Virus record (IMG/VR): IMGVR_UViG_2737471832_000006
Length of the DNA stretch: 5,899 nucleotides
Strand: one strand, 5' to 3'
Origin: a virus
Taxonomy: Duplodnaviria > Heunggongvirae > Uroviricota > Caudoviricetes
Positions within the stretch are counted from its first letter, which is position 1, and every line of letters begins with the position of its first letter. Of this stretch, positions 585 through 5,899 are shown piece after piece. The notes beneath the pieces are model-generated. The model was not told where the DNA came from. It searched no databases and worked only from the letters and a program-made list of their open reading frames with translations. The translations under genes and the position numbers were made by a program.

Positions 585-947
585 CTAGAGAATACAAAGA
601 ACATCATCTGGTGTTAACACAGAGTCTTCTACGTACTCAGGGTGGTTACGTAATACATCTCTCTGATGTCTCAAGATCTGCGCTGGAATTTCTTGCTCAT
701 CCACAATTTTGGCAGTATCCAGCAAAATACTGCCACACCTTATTTCCAGCGAAACAAAGCGATTCCACTCTGGACCATTAGAACACAAAAGGTCAAACAA
801 AACCTCACCTGTAGCCTGTGAATTGCCCAGTATAACAGAAAGCCTCTTCTCGATTTCGTGAACTGAAGTCAAGGGGTTCTCGTAGCCAGTCGCCATAACG
901 ACGGCAATGAGAGCCCCTGAGACGTTAACACCTGTTATTTCAAACAA
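585..947 (-). CDS. rnlB: Putative antitoxin of an RnlA/RnlB-like (LsoA/LsoB-like) type II toxin-antitoxin pair
   Basis: 120-codon ORF immediately downstream of the 356-aa HEPN toxin candidate. Its TTG start (945-947) overlaps the toxin stop (940-942), and AAGGA lies 8 nt upstream. An alternative ATG at 894-896 would give 103 aa. Size and position match RnlB (about 123 aa, encoded downstream of rnlA) from memory; the sequence itself is not independently recognised. Confidence 0.45.
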   Translation of the reverse strand: MFEITGVNVSGALIAVVMATGYENPLTSVHEIEKRLSVILGNSQATGEVLFDLLCSNGPEWNRFVSLEIRCGSILLDTAKIVDEQEIPAQILRHQRDVLRNHPEYVEDSVLTPDDVLCIL

Positions 948-2010
948 TATACAAATCCTTAATAATTCCCCATGCCTGTCTGGCCTTAGTCATCAGTCGT
1001 GCCATGTCAGAAACCATACGGCTTGTGTCGACAACTATCTCCATATGAAACAGGCCATGACGTTCTCTGTTAAAGAAAGTATAGGCATCATTAATGGTCT
1101 TAACCTTAGCTGACGATAAATTGCATCCAAATTGTTGTTTCAGAATAAATTCACTCCCAATTTTATCAAAATAACGCCCGAAACCATCCTGCGTGATTGG
1201 CATGCCATATCGGTACATTGTTGATTTAAGTACTCCCTCAACTGAACGTAATTCAGGATACAACAACATACAGTAATCAGGTAAATCGGGGGCGGCGAGT
1301 TTAACACACAGCCCAGAAACGAGCAATTTTTCAACATTCTTATGCAATAGTGGGTACGCATCCCCCATTTCACACTCTAGATGTGAGCGAGCAACTTCTT
1401 TCTGAACTATATACGCTTTGCCATCGTCCTGACGAATGAGAACTTTTTCCAGTCCTTGTAAATCGAGTAGCTCTGACAAGTTGAATATAAACACTCTATA
1501 ACATGACAATGGACGCCCTTGTATTTGTAGTGTTCCATTTCTGTGATGCAGACTAACTGTCAACTCATCCTGAAATTCTGGCGAATGAATTTTCCACACC
1601 GTTGTATGAGTGTTCCGTAAGTATTCGTAAAATTGTATATGTGGCTGCTCTGCTGAGAGCTGAAGTACAGATAAAACGTTCGCTTCAACGAACCCTTGTA
1701 ACACCATATTTACCTGTTCAAATTCTGCAGGATTGATGGTTTCATAGAGATCATCAGCCAACTCTTTTCCAAGATTATGATTAGCTCCTGTTTGATACTG
1801 GACTGTAGACGTCCCTCCGTTATTATAGAAAATGTTAACAGTTGCCAAAGCTTCTCCTGGTTTAGCAAACACAACCCGAAGTCCTGCTCTTGCACCAGGC
1901 ATTGGTCCAATTGAATGGACGGAATAGTTTTTATTTTCAATAAATGCCCTAGACGTAGCCTCAATAGTTGTCCGATCTAAATTTAAATTAGTGTAGTTCC
2001 TGACTGTCAT
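940..2010 (-). CDS. rnlA: RnlA/LsoA-like HEPN endoribonuclease toxin (356 aa)
   Basis: ATG at 2008-2010 (MTVRNYTNLNL...); the 37 codons upstream in the ORF track are read-through of the leader. Stop at 940-942. The 356-aa length matches RnlA (about 357 aa). A HEPN Rx4-6H signature (R-E-R-H-G-L-F-H, residues about 315-322) sits near the C-terminus, where the RnlA catalytic motif is located. A small overlapping gene follows, as for rnlA-rnlB. The local sequence is AT-rich, typical of acquired defence cargo. Confidence 0.6.
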   Translation of the reverse strand: MTVRNYTNLNLDRTTIEATSRAFIENKNYSVHSIGPMPGARAGLRVVFAKPGEALATVNIFYNNGGTSTVQYQTGANHNLGKELADDLYETINPAEFEQVNMVLQGFVEANVLSVLQLSAEQPHIQFYEYLRNTHTTVWKIHSPEFQDELTVSLHHRNGTLQIQGRPLSCYRVFIFNLSELLDLQGLEKVLIRQDDGKAYIVQKEVARSHLECEMGDAYPLLHKNVEKLLVSGLCVKLAAPDLPDYCMLLYPELRSVEGVLKSTMYRYGMPITQDGFGRYFDKIGSEFILKQQFGCNLSSAKVKTINDAYTFFNRERHGLFHMEIVVDTSRMVSDMARLMTKARQAWGIIKDLYIV

Positions 2011-2069
2011 TTGCTTAACCCTATAAAAAAATTTAGCAAACTCTACAATATAGCCCCTCTTTAGTCTAA

Positions 2070-2432
2070 TCAGGCGCTGTATCCTGAAATCGGGTACCGA
2101 TAATATCCCTCCTGCAGCCATGTGTTGGTGTTAACAAGATACTGTGTATCAATTGAATCCGTCAGATTGCAAAAGTTGATGCCTCTTTCGCGCAGTTCCT
2201 CCACCAGCACGACAAGATGCCGCATACTGCGCCTCAGTCGGTCCAGTTTCCAGACCACCAGCGTGTCACCTGCCGATAATGTCCTGAGCAGCTTTTTCAG
2301 TCCTGGTCTGTCGGACTTTGTACCGCTTATCTTGTCTTCAAAAATCAGCTCGCATCCTGCACAGTTCAACGCATTACGTTGTAGATCGGTGTTCTGGTCA
2401 TTTGTTGATACGCGAACATAGCCAATAAGCAT
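2070..2432 (-). pseudogene. pin: Serine DNA invertase (Pin/Gin/Hin/Cin family), 3'-truncated; only the N-terminal catalytic core is retained
   Basis: Translation from ATG 2430-2432 (SD AGGAGGAG just upstream) reads MLIGYVRVSTNDQNTDLQRNAL...GDTLVVWKLDRLRRSMRHLVVLVEELRERGINFCNLTDSIDT, the hallmark N-terminus of Pin/Gin/Hin invertases including the catalytic Ser in the RVST motif. After about residue 97 (near 2141) the frame runs into unrelated sequence (QYLVNTNTWLQEGYYRYPISGYSA) and stops at 2070-2072. The conserved SSPMGRFFFH continuation, E-helix and C-terminal HTH domain are absent. Confidence 0.8.
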
Positions 2433-2461
2433 GATAGCTCCTCCTGACAAAAACAGGAACG

Positions 2462-2935
2462 ATGCCATTTGCGCGCTATTTCTGCATTTTCATAAACGTT
2501 CAATTGGGAGAAGCGGCAAAACGTAATGTCGGAACCGGTAATAATCAACTCCCAGACATGTCCGCATTTGGTATGTCGCGAAACGGACAAACTGCCTGGG
2601 ATATTCTCCCAAATGGTATGATTCGACAGGTTGGTACTGTGACACTGACGCCTGTTGGTAATTTCAACGCAATTACTCTTGGTGGAGTGCTGTACTACAC
2701 CCATTACTACAGGGTTAATTTCCCCAGACAATTCCCAAATGCACAAATAGCAACGCTGGCAACACTAGCGAGTTACAGCTTTTCGACCCAGTCATCAATG
2801 GCTGGGAAATCACTGGCAACGCATCGCGATACTGATTCTGGCACTGACGTATCAAGAACGCGATTCACTGTGTCGTATACGACACCCAATCTCGGCGAAA
2901 TTCCGACTTTGCATTTTGAAGCAATAGGATACTAA
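2462..2935 (+). CDS. Alternative tail-fibre C-terminal cassette (S'v / StfE-like), promoterless; expressible only after inversion fuses it to the constant part of stf
   Basis: The ORF ends ...LGEIPTLHFEAIGY, paralleling the Stf C-terminus ...DCCFIALGY. Its N-terminal part contains QLGEAAK...LPDMSAFG, paralleling Stf GLGETINK...ISDVSAFRNALQLG just after the predicted crossover site. It is in opposite orientation to stf/tfa and adjacent to the invertase, as in Mu G and e14 P segments. The ATG at 2462 has no convincing RBS, so the true coding part probably begins at the crossover site near 2500. Confidence 0.55.
   Translation: MPFARYFCIFINVQLGEAAKRNVGTGNNQLPDMSAFGMSRNGQTAWDILPNGMIRQVGTVTLTPVGNFNAITLGGVLYYTHYYRVNFPRQFPNAQIATLATLASYSFSTQSSMAGKSLATHRDTDSGTDVSRTRFTVSYTTPNLGEIPTLHFEAIGY
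2487..2512. repeat. Candidate degenerate invertase crossover site (partner of the site at 4021-4046), invertase-proximal end of the invertible segment
   Basis: ttttcataaacgttcaattgggagaa matches the reverse complement of 4021-4046 at 17 of 26 positions and encodes the shared LGE junction. The AAACC-NN-GGTTT core is degraded, consistent with a frozen switch. Confidence 0.3.
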
Positions 2936-2937
2936 AT

Positions 2938-3171
2938 ATGGAGAATATGTATTTCAGCCCAACGACCGTTGGTTTTTATGTTTCTGAACAAGAGCGACCT
3001 GATGATGCGGTTGAAGTCTCGCCAGAGGTGGAGGCATTTTTGAGGGAGTGTGTTATCTGGGGAGCGGATACATTTAACGTAGAGCGAGATGCAGCAACGG
3101 TGACATATCCAACAGAACTGCTTGAATATGTCACCACCTACAACGCCCCCGTTAAATATCCTGCGGATTGA
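2938..3171 (+). CDS. Short ORF (77 aa) in the position of the alternative tail fibre assembly gene (U' / TfaE-like); possibly a truncated or divergent chaperone
   Basis: ATG at 2938 lies 2 nt after the stop of the S'v cassette, with AGGA about 9 nt upstream. It is convergent with tfa, and the two 3' ends overlap by 20 bp (3152-3171). It lacks the C-terminal KYRVLL-RVD motif seen in the Tfa on the other strand, so the assignment is positional only. Confidence 0.35.
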   Translation: MENMYFSPTTVGFYVSEQERPDDAVEVSPEVEAFLRECVIWGADTFNVERDAATVTYPTELLEYVTTYNAPVKYPAD

Positions 3172-3562
3172 CAGGCCATACGGGTTTTGCTGTATCAACG
3201 CGCATCAGCAAGACCCGGTATTTTTTCCATTCAGATAACGCGGCGGTTTCTTCTGCCGTCGCGATTTCCGCATCAAAAGCATCCTGTCTCCAGGCTATTT
3301 CCTTATCAGCCATAGAACGCAATACCGTTCTTTTCTGTTCAGCCTGAATAATCTGTTGTTCAGCGGAGAGTGGCGGGATATCAATCCACGCAGGATTACC
3401 ATTTTTATCAGCCCCCAGCGTTTTGCCTTGTGGCGCTACGCCTGTGTAAATTGCCATTGTTTCATCATCAACATCAACGCCATTTTCAGGCCATGAACCG
3501 GCGCTGATATATACCTCTTTTAGTGCTTTCGGATAGAAAGAGCCTTTATAAAATTTATTCAT
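3152..3562 (-). CDS. tfa: Tail fibre assembly protein (Tfa, lambda Tfa / Mu U family), 136 aa
   Basis: ATG at 3560-3562 (MNKFYKGSFYP...) lies 2 nt after the stf stop. The C-terminus ...EWKKYRVLLMRVDTAKPVWPVNP matches the conserved Tfa C-terminal motif (lambda Tfa ...WKKYRVLLNRVDT...). The ORF track's earlier start at 3592 is a TTG inside the end of stf. Confidence 0.8.
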   Translation of the reverse strand: MNKFYKGSFYPKALKEVYISAGSWPENGVDVDDETMAIYTGVAPQGKTLGADKNGNPAWIDIPPLSAEQQIIQAEQKRTVLRSMADKEIAWRQDAFDAEIATAEETAALSEWKKYRVLLMRVDTAKPVWPVNPQDI

Positions 3563-3564
3563 TC

Positions 3565-5899
3565 TTAATACCCCAGCGCGATAAAACAACAATCTTCGGT
3601 GCCCTCTCCGGATGGCGACCAGTTCTGAATACTGATATGCGTTCTGCTGGCAATACGCACATTCATCGCGGCATTGTAGCCAGATGTTCCACGGTTTCCG
3701 GTCGCAAATAAGCCTGCATAGGGAAAAGCAAATGGTAAGGCATATCCAGCATCAGCTCCCTTTTGTGTTGCCACCGTTCCCCACTGCAACATAAGTTTCA
3801 CCGGGTTTCCTGTCGTCGCAATGCATGGAATGTAGATGTAGCCATTCCCTGACATCATTGACCTGAAGCTGTCTAAACCCAGTAACTTCGAGGCATTATC
3901 TGCTCCAACATCTCGTGTTGCGGCGGTCCCTAACTGGAGCGCATTTCGGAAGGCTGATACATCAGAAATATCAGCTCCATTAGCCGATTTCTGCATAGCT
4001 CCGGAGGCTTTATTTATCGTTTCGCCCAAACCAAGGTATGCGAGAAGACCAGCTACATCCTTTCCACTCAAATTAGTCAGCGTATTGTCCAGCGGTTGTT
4101 TGCCCGCCAGTGCGCTCTGTACTTCGCTTTTGCTGTAGGCATCCAGATCTTTAGGCGTAAGCGTAATATCCTTCGTGCCGTCAAACGGAACGCCGTTGAT
4201 ATTCCGTGCAGTCTGTAGTTTTGTGGCAGTTGCAGCATTACCAGTGGTGTTCTGATTACCCGTAGTGTTTACACCTGGAAGGTTAATATTTGCAGAACCG
4301 TCGAAAACAACTCCACCGATAGATCTTGCCGTCTGCAATTTCGTGGCTGTACTTGCATTACCATTCAATGAACCAGTTAATCCACCTGTAACAGACAACG
4401 GACCTGAAACTGTTCCTCCGGTTGTTGGCAGTGCTCCAATATCTAACGGCGTCGGTTTCTGATGTGTGCTATACATCGTATAAACAACACCATAGGTAAC
4501 GCTGGAAGGCTTACTCGCTGAATATGTTGGCGAGGTATAAACAGAAACTGACGCATTTGCAGTACAATCCCAATGGATATTTACACTCGTCGCATAATTG
4601 CCAATCTCAACGTAAATATCATATGTATCGCCGGATGTGTTGATCCAGGCGAAATTCGTTAATCCGACGGCTGTACGCTTCCACAAAGCCCCGGTAATTC
4701 CTTTGGGGTTTCCATTGCCTGCTCGTAGAACCAGTTCTGAAATGCCTGCCTGATGTGGGGAACCGACGTTGTAACCAGCGCCACCAATCAATGCGATGTA
4801 AACGATGGAACTCGCCTGTGGCATGGTTACCGTTGCTAATTTGAACCAACCAGCACCACCGCTGAATGACATTGTTGTTGAGTTAAGCGTACCAATATCT
4901 TTCGGCGTCAGTGTTATATCCGCTGAAAGCGCCTTACCATTCACCTTACGGGCAGAAGGTACCCGACCATTCGCATTATCATTAGCTGCTTTCACTGCTT
5001 TCGGTGTCGCGGCAAGCGTTTCAGATGCGCTGTTGGTTGCACTACTGAGCTGGACAATTCCTTTTTGTGCTGTCGTAGCGTCCTGTGCGGTGTATTTCCC
5101 GTTAGCCAGGTCATACGCGGCCTTAACGGCTTTTGGCGTTGCCGCCTGTGACTCGGAAGTGCTGTTGGTCGCACTGCTGAGCTGTACTACCCCCTTTTTC
5201 GTCGTGCTCGCATCCTCAAGCGCCACAGCGGATGCAATATCCTCTGCCCGTTTTGCTGCTGTCTCGGCGCGCGTTGCCGCGGATTCCGCCGTACTTTTGC
5301 TCTGAGCTGCCGCCGTCGCACTGCCAGCTGCCTCTGTCGCCTTCGTGGATGCCGTCGTGGCGCTGCCCTTCGCTGCTGACGCTTGTCTGGTCGCCTCATC
5401 TTTTGAAGCAGACGCCGATGATGCCGATGACGCCGCCGAACTGGCGGACGATGCGGCAGCCGTTTTTGAGGATTCTGCACGGGTTTCCGACGCTTTCGCG
5501 TTCGTTTCGGATGTCTTCGCTGCGGAAGCTGACCTCGCTGCTGCGCTGGCCTGTTCAGTGGCTTCGCCAGCCTTCGTTGTGGCTGTTGAAGCAGACGATG
5601 CGGCACTTTCTGCCGACTTTCCGGCAGCGGTGGCACTGGCTGAGGCCTGCCCGGCACTTGTTGATGCGGCACTGGCAGATGATGCAGCCGCTGTTTTTGA
5701 GCCTGCCGCAGCTGAGGCACTCTGTCCCGCTGCCGTTTCAGAAGACCTGGCGTTCGTCTCGGACGTTTTTGCCGCCTTCGCGGAATTTCCTGCCGCCGTT
5801 GCCGAGGAAGCGGCACTACTGGCGCTTGATGATGCGTTCGTTTCTGATGATTTCGCTGCCTCTTTTGAGGCCGCCGCATCCCGGGCTGAGGTGGCAGCT
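3565..5899 (-). CDS. stf: Side tail fibre protein (Stf-like), 5'-partial; gene continues beyond the window end
   Basis: This minus-strand frame is open from the window edge to the stop at 3565-3567; I checked every codon from 5227 to 5899 and found no stop. The ORF track's start at 5226 is only an internal GTG. The translation of 5227-5899 is Ala/Ser/Thr/Lys/Glu-rich with ...AAKTSETNAKASE...-type repeats typical of the Stf N-terminal shaft. It is followed by the duplicated KG(V/I)VQLSSATNS-SE--AATPKAVKAA motif found in lambda Stf / Mu S / P2 H fibres, then a Gly/Thr/Asn-rich distal region ending ...IALGY. The 230-aa Arg-rich ORF (5187-5879) and the 166-aa plus-strand ORF (4805-5305) are alternative-frame artefacts of this gene. 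Confidence 0.9.
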   Translation of the reverse strand, partial: AATSARDAAASKEAAKSSETNASSSASSAASSATAAGNSAKAAKTSETNARSSETAAGQSASAAAGSKTAAASSASAASTSAGQASASATAAGKSAESAASSASTATTKAGEATEQASAAARSASAAKTSETNAKASETRAESSKTAAASSASSAASSASSASASKDEATRQASAAKGSATTASTKATEAAGSATAAAQSKSTAESAATRAETAAKRAEDIASAVALEDASTTKKGVVQLSSATNSTSESQAATPKAVKAAYDLANGKYTAQDATTAQKGIVQLSSATNSASETLAATPKAVKAANDNANGRVPSARKVNGKALSADITLTPKDIGTLNSTTMSFSGGAGWFKLATVTMPQASSIVYIALIGGAGYNVGSPHQAGISELVLRAGNGNPKGITGALWKRTAVGLTNFAWINTSGDTYDIYVEIGNYATSVNIHWDCTANASVSVYTSPTYSASKPSSVTYGVVYTMYSTHQKPTPLDIGALPTTGGTVSGPLSVTGGLTGSLNGNASTATKLQTARSIGGVVFDGSANINLPGVNTTGNQNTTGNAATATKLQTARNINGVPFDGTKDITLTPKDLDAYSKSEVQSALAGKQPLDNTLTNLSGKDVAGLLAYLGLGETINKASGAMQKSANGADISDVSAFRNALQLGTAATRDVGADNASKLLGLDSFRSMMSGNGYIYIPCIATTGNPVKLMLQWGTVATQKGADAGYALPFAFPYAGLFATGNRGTSGYNAAMNVRIASRTHISIQNWSPSGEGTEDCCFIALGY
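4021..4046. repeat. Invertase crossover site (hix/gix/pix-like 26-bp imperfect palindrome) inside stf at the constant/variable junction
   Basis: TTCGCCCAAACC-AA-GGTATGCGAGAA has the AAACC-NN-GGT(T/A)T core of Hin/Gin/Pin recombination sites (compare hix TTCTTGAAAACCAAGGTTTTTGATAA, recalled from memory). The two half-sites are 9 of 12 symmetric. On the coding strand it encodes LAYLGLGE, the point after which Stf and the S'v cassette diverge. Confidence 0.5.

Follow-up and report, generated by a model that had tools for sequence, protein, structure and literature searches.

The window analysed here – a 5,899-nt stretch of DNA catalogued as virus record IMGVR_UViG_2737471832_000006 – holds the 3′ end of a prophage tail-fibre gene (stf), an invertible segment that supplies alternative tips for the fibre, and a remnant of pin, a gene for a serine invertase. 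Our reading, to which we assign a probability of about 80%, is that this is an orphan but competent tail-fibre switch, not frozen but flipped in trans by an invertase encoded elsewhere. It is a further instance of a system of a well-known kind and brings no new mechanism. An earlier note, made from the sequence alone, had recognised a host-range inversion switch of the Mu G, P1 C and e14 P type, with the constant part of stf, the expressed tip (Sv) and the assembly gene tfa on the minus strand and the alternative tip (S'v) and a short U'-like open reading frame (ORF) on the plus strand, and had judged the switch to be probably frozen in its current orientation. The ORF listing and domain searches confirm the architecture, its class and this arrangement of genes; the verdict of freezing is not supported, as two lineages with a truncated invertase gene occur in both orientations with core-exact breakpoints.

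In the sequence of events that we propose, an invertible host-range cassette of the Pin kind (e14 P-type, Din-family), at the 3′ end of a lambdoid prophage stf, would have had its resident invertase destroyed when an rnlAB module replaced everything past codon 97, while retaining in cis two 26-bp sites with identical AA cores and, presumably, a Fis-binding enhancer. A Pin-family serine invertase from another locus would then bind both sites and, together with the Fis-bound enhancer, make 2-bp staggered cuts at the cores, rotate the half-sites by 180 degrees and religate them, so that 2501-4032 is flipped. In orientation A – that of the window – stf has the Sv tip at its end, with tfa after it; in orientation B, with the segment inverted, it runs in-frame into S'v, with an ORF of 77 aa after it.

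The evidence that carries this reading comes from relatives that share the truncated locus. A search with the whole window found no complete genome collinear with it throughout, the best matches reaching 73% coverage in two pieces. Pairwise comparison with E. coli 5CRE51 (NZ_CP021175.1; L001) found 85-2500 identical, 4018-5899 collinear and 2499-4037 inverted, and an in silico flip of L001 between the cores leaves just 2 differences from the window in 5815 positions. Its junctions, TTTTCATAAACG TT GGTTTGGGCGAA and TTCTCCCAATTG AA GGTATGCGAGAA, are exact reciprocal exchanges of the half-sites of the invertase-proximal site (L) and the distal site (R). The bases flanking the core differ between L and R, which at the switch point have nothing but the 2-bp core in common; the crossover was therefore confined to that core – a pattern that, judged from the junction sequences, marks strand exchange by a serine invertase and excludes homologous recombination of the ordinary kind. 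On the L side the junctions read TTTTCATAAACGTT joined to CAATTGGGAGAA versus TTTTCATAAACGTT joined to GGTTTGGGCGAA, and on the partner side TTCGCCCAAACCAA joined to GGTATGCG and TTCTCCCAATTGAA joined to GGTATGCG; two junction types, TTTTCATAAACGTTCAATTGGG and TTTTCATAAACGTTGGTTTGGG, distinguish the isomers.

A junction-spanning query of complete genomes returned five with the rnlAB-truncated pin (5CRE51, CM151356, N1193, '410' (CM132960) and CM151362), all five in orientation B and none in orientation A. A metagenome scan for the junction returned a single contig, JACXXQ010001757.1, which agrees with L001 in the junction and the outer flank but lies in orientation A and differs from the window at 1 position; a scan of viral contigs for the rnlA-pin′ junction plus either L junction found nothing. 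A single truncation cannot have happened in both orientations; the segment must therefore have inverted at least once after the invertase was lost.

A second, independently truncated lineage tells the same story. Here pin is cut at the position equivalent to window 2297, leaving about 45 codons that adjoin a DUF262 gene, in many genomes, several of them named 'strain 167'. Strain 164 (L010) is in orientation A and WCHEC005784 (L009) in orientation B; common to both are the flank, the pin stub and, within the S'v cassette, an IS3 insertion, and with one of them flipped at the core the two agree at every position (0 mismatches in 9702 nt). Orientation B occurs in five genomes of the lineage. Inversion with strand exchange at the 2-bp core, as expected of a Din-family system, is thus found in two lineages, as evolutionary rather than population-level evidence.

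Both comparisons bear on the possibility that an oppositely oriented tail-fibre end was swapped in by homologous recombination with a prophage whose invertase is intact. Donors for such an exchange exist, the module being found at 89-99% identity across lambdoid, e14-like and P2-like prophages, and tail-fibre genes are recombination hot spots. Import of a pre-inverted copy from another prophage nevertheless appears very unlikely because L009 and L010 share the IS3 marker inside the segment: with identity over 9.7 kb including that element, the donor would have to come from the same truncated lineage. Nor does the comparison of the window with L001 – two differences in 5.8 kb – reveal any block of divergence around the segment. 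Mis-assembly of the alternative orientations across the inverted repeats is a hardly credible source of the pattern, even though invertible segments are sometimes assembled arbitrarily from mixed cultures, for the identity between the repeats extends over just 9-14 bp or so, which is not enough to mislead assemblers, at least 10 independent complete genomes are in orientation B with identical junctions, and a mixed culture would itself imply active inversion.

The crossover sites themselves look serviceable. The proximal site, L, reads TTTTCATAAACG TT CAATTGGGAGAA (2487-2512) and the distal site, R, reads TTCGCCCAAACC AA GGTATGCGAGAA (4021-4046), which confirms that both are real but places the partner at 4021-4046 and not at the 4015-4050 of the earlier proposal. 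The two match at 17 of 26 positions when aligned in inverted orientation, as had been noted, yet the 'degraded core' that had been described is absent: the central dinucleotide is AA in both sites, each read in its own orientation. Two inverted sites of about 26 bp, with imperfect 12-bp half-sites and an identical 2-bp core – the arrangement of Din-family systems – are therefore present. The K-12 e14 sites (NC_000913.3) are pixL, TTCTCCCAAACC AA CGTTTATGAAAA, and pixR, TTCTCCCAAACC AA GGTTTTCGAGAG; L lies within 3 mismatches of K-12 pixL, and R has 3 mismatches to a 25-mer of K-12 pixR, a match that 0 of 200 shuffles equalled in either case.

How much of the mismatch between L and R could reflect wear is answered by the flank on the invertase side. 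The outer, pin-proximal half of L (CGTTTATGAAAA) is identical to that of the functional K-12 pixL, and the stretch from about 2230-2235 to the L core, comprising the 5′ 270 nt of pin and the outer half of L, is 100% identical to a locus with intact pinE (CRE1493, L003). Because of these two identities, the low identity between L and R is to be read as the normal asymmetry of these sites and not as decay; decay of the proximal site was considered and rejected on the same grounds, and the description of that site as 'degenerate' falls with it. The inner half-site of L does differ from K-12 at three core-proximal bases, with CAATTG beside the core here versus GGTTTG there, which would favour a site too weak to be used; CAATTG is, however, also used in loci with an intact invertase, and it occurs in both positions.

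A recombinational enhancer would be the third element required in cis. Known systems of this family have two Fis sites in cis, inside the invertase gene and about 100-165 bp from the proximal site; in Mu and P1 the enhancer that Fis binds sits in the 5′ portion of that gene. In hin, 65 bp of DNA with Fis sites at both ends form the enhancer, at a distance of 99-100 bp from hixL (PMC3798978). By Hin spacing, the equivalent stretch is about 2335-2411, which is kept in both truncated lineages, including the one cut at 2297, and is 100% identical to the intact-pinE locus; from its position, we predict a Fis enhancer within this stretch, in the first ~170 bp of pin.

The resident invertase gene is another matter. 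The remnant ORF (2070-2432, minus strand) matches only the Resolvase N-terminal domain in Pfam, and a match to the phrog_125 DNA invertase family covers its residues 1-97. Alignment with the intact 184-aa pinE (CRE1493, L003) shows native pin sequence for 97 codons, down to about 2140-2141, and then a 1-nt insertion followed by unrelated sequence, through which the ORF continues as junk to a stop at 2070; the native part ends ...NLTDSIDT versus ...SLTDSIDT in the intact PinE. The earlier statement that a Pin-family invertase has been cut to about 97 codons and has lost its DNA-binding domain is upheld by Pfam and by this alignment. The remnant, which also carries a G66R substitution in the DRLGR motif, cannot be an active invertase, because it is without the end of the E-helix and the helix-turn-helix domain. 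An adjacent complete serine invertase, with catalytic and C-terminal DNA-binding domains, belongs to a Din-family system and is lacking here; with only 97 native codons and no DNA-binding domain, the locus is an orphan substrate and not a self-sufficient system.

That the truncation might be a sequencing error, with an intact full-length invertase to be recovered by correction, was considered and rejected: the identical rnlAB-pin′ junction recurs in about 70-72 complete genomes and a metagenome contig, and it accompanies the full switch in five complete genomes. RefSeq, too, holds an identical remnant, described as 'recombinase family protein, missing C-terminus' and annotated as a pseudogene. 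At the DNA level, the remnant is 90% identical to K-12 pinE and 97% identical to another pinE allele. All 10 of its differences from the CRE1493 pinE (9 substitutions and one 1-nt insertion) fall between about 2146 and 2234, at its distal end, and two of them give the replacements G66R and RS>CN. Such clustering could mean that selection on the protein has relaxed while the DNA near the enhancer was conserved, or it could mark a boundary of recombination.

The dead invertase is an argument for a switch that no longer inverts in the window's genome, with the invertase gone, the proximal site weak and the S'v arm a silent relic. Truly locked relatives do exist: L007 and L008 – the only two junction carriers examined outside the switch-bearing set – keep the rnlAB-pin′ junction, which adjoins ssrA in both, lose homology to the window at 2355 and have neither the L site nor the segment; no pix-like site was found in the fibre region of L008. 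Deletion of pinE in K-12 is reported to lock the P segment (PMC12529663), and the support for a trans-acting invertase is drawn from relatives, not from the window's own genome. We nonetheless consider a frozen switch unlikely in the face of two truncated lineages that occur in both orientations with core-exact breakpoints, of inner half-sites used where the invertase is intact, and of S'v and 77-aa ORFs that are intact and identical to expressed copies.

If the switch is competent, its enzyme would come from elsewhere in the genome, a possibility that the earlier note had allowed as an exception and that the occurrence of both orientations in truncated loci now favours. Second pin-like loci were sought with a chimeric probe, in which the unique flank 85-2139 was joined to a 255-nt C-terminal part of pinE that has no counterpart in the window. 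The chimera matched in two places in each of the five lineage-1 genomes in orientation B, whereas the flank alone matched in exactly one place in every genome; each flipped chromosome therefore has one other locus with the sequence of the pin DNA-binding domain. An analogous probe for lineage 2 matched in two places in L009, in L010 and in all five orientation-B genomes, and in one place only in some orientation-A genomes. Such sequence is present in 56%-64% of 5426 complete E. coli genomes. We infer from these place counts that the second pin-like locus is a candidate for the trans-acting enzyme. Gin, Cin, Pin and Hin can substitute for one another. Experiments have shown that PinQ, encoded by prophage Qin, acts in trans to invert the P segment of e14 (Kirigo et al., NAR 2025; PMC12529663).

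Several points weigh against an orphan switch that is still flipped in trans. The second pin-like loci are known solely as DNA matches to 255 nt, and the evidence for an enzyme in trans is drawn from the genomes of relatives, not from that of the window. Assemblies give one orientation per genome; they prove inversion after truncation but not its present rate, so that continued switching is a presumption. In lineage 2, every one of the 18 genomes that have an IS903B copy 37 nt past the pin stub shows orientation A (18 in A, 0 in B), although these are probably clonal and say little either way. For Pin, the enhancer is placed by analogy with Hin, and a Fis-motif scan of the pin 5′ region failed to discriminate, returning several equally weak G-N13-C 15-mers; the candidates among these have their centres at 2404 (95.5 bp from the L core) and 2355 (144.5 bp). 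Lastly, deletion of pinE in K-12 is reported to lock the P segment despite a chromosomal pinQ at native expression (PMC12529663). Given that lock, flipping in trans at native expression may be rare; alternatively, the lock could reflect loss of the enhancer that lies within the deleted gene.

The alternative arm of the segment shows no sign of the decay that had been suspected. The reading frame is kept across the core (...TAC C/TT/CAA TTG GGA GAA..., with the core between slashes), and orientation B, as seen in L001, yields an intact stf of 999 aa with the S'v tip at its end and the 77-aa ORF behind it, so that the constant 5′ part of stf joins in-frame to either of two convergent cassettes, each with its downstream ORF (tfa or the 77-aa ORF). 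The 77-aa ORF is identical in L001 and differs by 1 residue in L003, an e14-like prophage with intact pinE, and in L004, a P2-like prophage with an intact 197-aa invertase (another tally gives 0-1 aa differences in L003/L004), and the pairing of S'v with this ORF recurs beside full-length invertases. Because it is nearly identical in loci with intact invertases, the shortness of the ORF is evidently a property of the cassette type and not a product of decay. Some relatives do show decay, with IS3 in S'v (L009 and L010) or IS1 in the segment of phage phi458.

What the 77-aa ORF does can be suggested from position only, which would make it a chaperone. Its residues 1-31 match phrog_188 (Tfa; E 8e-5), the one pointer to a Tfa-like N-terminus, and it has no Pfam match and no BLASTP similarity to the neighbouring tfa. 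The two tips have only a short N-terminal motif in common, and this high divergence is consistent with recognition of different receptors, by which inversion would alter host range.

RefSeq/PGAP calls the orientation-B tail-fibre gene 'incomplete; missing C-terminus' in both L001 (10195-12507 in NZ_CP021175.1) and L009 (8319-10643). For L001, whose ORF runs uninterrupted for 999 aa, the call of a pseudogene is an artefact that the inversion caused in annotation; IS3 does interrupt the gene in L009.

Outside the invertible segment lies a fixed 13-codon leader (2462-2500; MPFARYFCIFINV), which reads into whichever cassette is 'silent' and gives an ORF of 157 aa in orientation A and of 168 aa in orientation B (L001 8378-8884). 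In the window, S'v is accordingly readable from an ATG at 2462 as the 157-aa ORF (2462-2935, plus strand), and in flipped relatives the Sv cassette becomes the 'silent' ORF of 168 aa. The leader is homologous to that of K-12 e14 StfE (MMPFACYFFIFINV), and K-12 StfE, which after inversion becomes StfE2, is reported in this form to block adsorption of phage T2 (PMC12529663). A simple sigma-70 scan of 2000-4200 found no promoter-like site, a result that is uninformative on expression of the leader ORF.

Among known systems, the closest is the e14 P segment of K-12 (pinE, stfP/tfaP, stfE/tfaE and pixL/pixR), which has the same gene order – invertase, proximal site, silent cassette and chaperone, convergent chaperone and expressed cassette, and a distal site inside stf – the same outer half-site CGTTTATGAAAA and AA core at the proximal site, and a similar short fixed leader ahead of the silent cassette (MPFARYFCIFINV here, MMPFACYFFIFINV in K-12). 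It differs in that the window's invertase is cut at codon 97 by the rnlAB module, in that the host element is a lambdoid prophage (with gpJ, lom and a 1000-aa stf), in the CAATTG (GGTTTG in K-12) of the L inner half-site, and in the cassette alleles, the partner of S'v being the 77-aa ORF and not a Caudo_TAP protein. The G segment of Mu (gin, S/U and S'/U') and the C segment of P1 (cin), likened here by architecture and not by sequence, likewise offer a choice of fibre C-termini along with their assembly genes, and have 26-bp sites built around a 2-bp core and an adjacent Din-family invertase; these, however, are myoviruses with intact invertases, whereas the window's locus needs an enzyme from elsewhere.

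Control of one prophage's tail-fibre segment by the invertase of another has a precedent in PinQ and PinR of Qin and Rac acting on e14 (PMC12529663), where, as here, inversion gives a new C-terminus to a small leader-plus-tip ORF that lies beside the invertase. The resident pinE of K-12 is intact, whereas the resident gene of the window is dead and action in trans would be its sole route; nor is an anti-phage phenotype known for the window's locus. In Escherichia phage phi458 (OP434518.1; L011), a copy of the invertible segment with 99.7% identity follows gpJ and lom in orientation B, and the invertase is again truncated, but the invertase allele and the truncation point are different, no rnlAB lies beside the remnant and an IS1 sits within the segment. 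In this phage (6001-8747; recorded host E. coli MC1061), the IS1 lies at the window-equivalent position ~3614-3622 and the invertase is cut at ~66 native codons. Since phi458 carries a different allele that is also truncated, truncation of the invertase beside this module appears to be recurrent.

The pin gene and its two-cassette module occur at 89-99% DNA identity on three tail architectures – an e14-like baseplate (L003), a P2-like contractile tail (L004) and the lambdoid gpJ/lom/stf arrangement of the window – which illustrates modular exchange of the whole switch between prophage types.

The coordinates of the features are collected in Table 1. The stf ORF comes to its end at 3565 on the minus strand in the ORF listing; in relatives the full gene encodes 999-1008 aa and is annotated 'prophage tail fiber N-terminal domain-containing protein'. 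In related complete genomes stf is preceded by gpJ and lom, and the element in the window is therefore a lambdoid prophage of E. coli.

Table 1. Features of the tail-fibre switch and its surroundings, in positions of the 5,899-nt window
Feature	Position	Strand	Description
stf constant part (Sc)	4047..5899	-	Phage_fiber_2 repeats; ORF enters from beyond 5899 and runs through the R site
Crossover site R (distal, pix-like)	4021..4046	+	core AA at 4033-4034; within the stf reading frame (LLAYLGLGE)
Sv cassette	3565..4032	-	C-terminal receptor-binding tip now joined to stf; Gp53-like_C; ends ...FIALGY
tfa	3152..3562	-	tail-fibre assembly chaperone for Sv, 136 aa; Pfam Caudo_TAP, E 3e-31; phrog_188, E 4e-42; WP_001032316.1
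77-aa ORF	2938..3171	+	downstream of S'v, at the U' position
S'v cassette	2501..2935	+	alternative C-terminal tip; Gp53-like_C; ends ...EAIGY; silent as fibre tip in the window's orientation
Crossover site L (invertase-proximal)	2487..2512	+	pix-like; core TT at 2499-2500 (AA on the opposite strand)
Predicted Fis-dependent recombinational enhancer	2335..2411		inside the 5′ end of the pin remnant; predicted from position
pin remnant	2141..2432	-	first 97 codons, of native sequence, of a serine invertase of the PinE type; only the catalytic domain is left
rnlA (940-2010) and rnlB (585-947)	585..2010	-	type II toxin-antitoxin (anti-phage) module; RnlA and RnlB Pfam domains; context, outside the switch

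Beyond the switch, about 72 complete genomes have the rnlA/rnlB module with an identity of at least 99%, and 363 have a version that is 60-80% identical. In L007 and L008 (6001-8269 in these, compared with 585-2140 in the window), rnlA and rnlB lie with the same pin′ junction directly beside ssrA, the gene for tmRNA; K-12 carries the element CP4-57, with its own rnlAB, at the ssrA locus. To the left of rnlB comes an ORF of 89 aa of unknown function and then, at 1-84, the end of ISEc22. These 84 positions are 100% identical to the end of that IS66-family element, which is present in thousands of E. coli records. In the window's genome, a copy of ISEc22 abuts position 85, where the closest relatives, L001 and L005, carry unrelated sequence, and the junction at 84/85 is absent from all complete genomes in the collection. 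The carriers of the locus are human-associated E. coli; several have an NDM or CRE label in the strain name, or the number 410 or 167, possibly a sequence type.

A broader scheme, which we regard as rather unlikely, would see here a maintained 'orphan' switch: the invertase would have been lost at least twice independently at a pinE-type locus, while the sites and the enhancer stub were kept and flipping persisted, so that the invertase of a different prophage would control the choice of fibre; the leader, next to the RnlAB defence module, would express, whichever way the segment lies, a free StfE/StfE2-like tip that perhaps blocks adsorption of other phages.

For annotation, the lesson is that an invertible segment beside a truncated invertase should not be taken for a dead switch on that ground. 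As a natural case of tail-fibre variation apparently controlled from another prophage, the locus is relevant to the host range of prophages and possibly to adsorption blocking of the StfE2 type.

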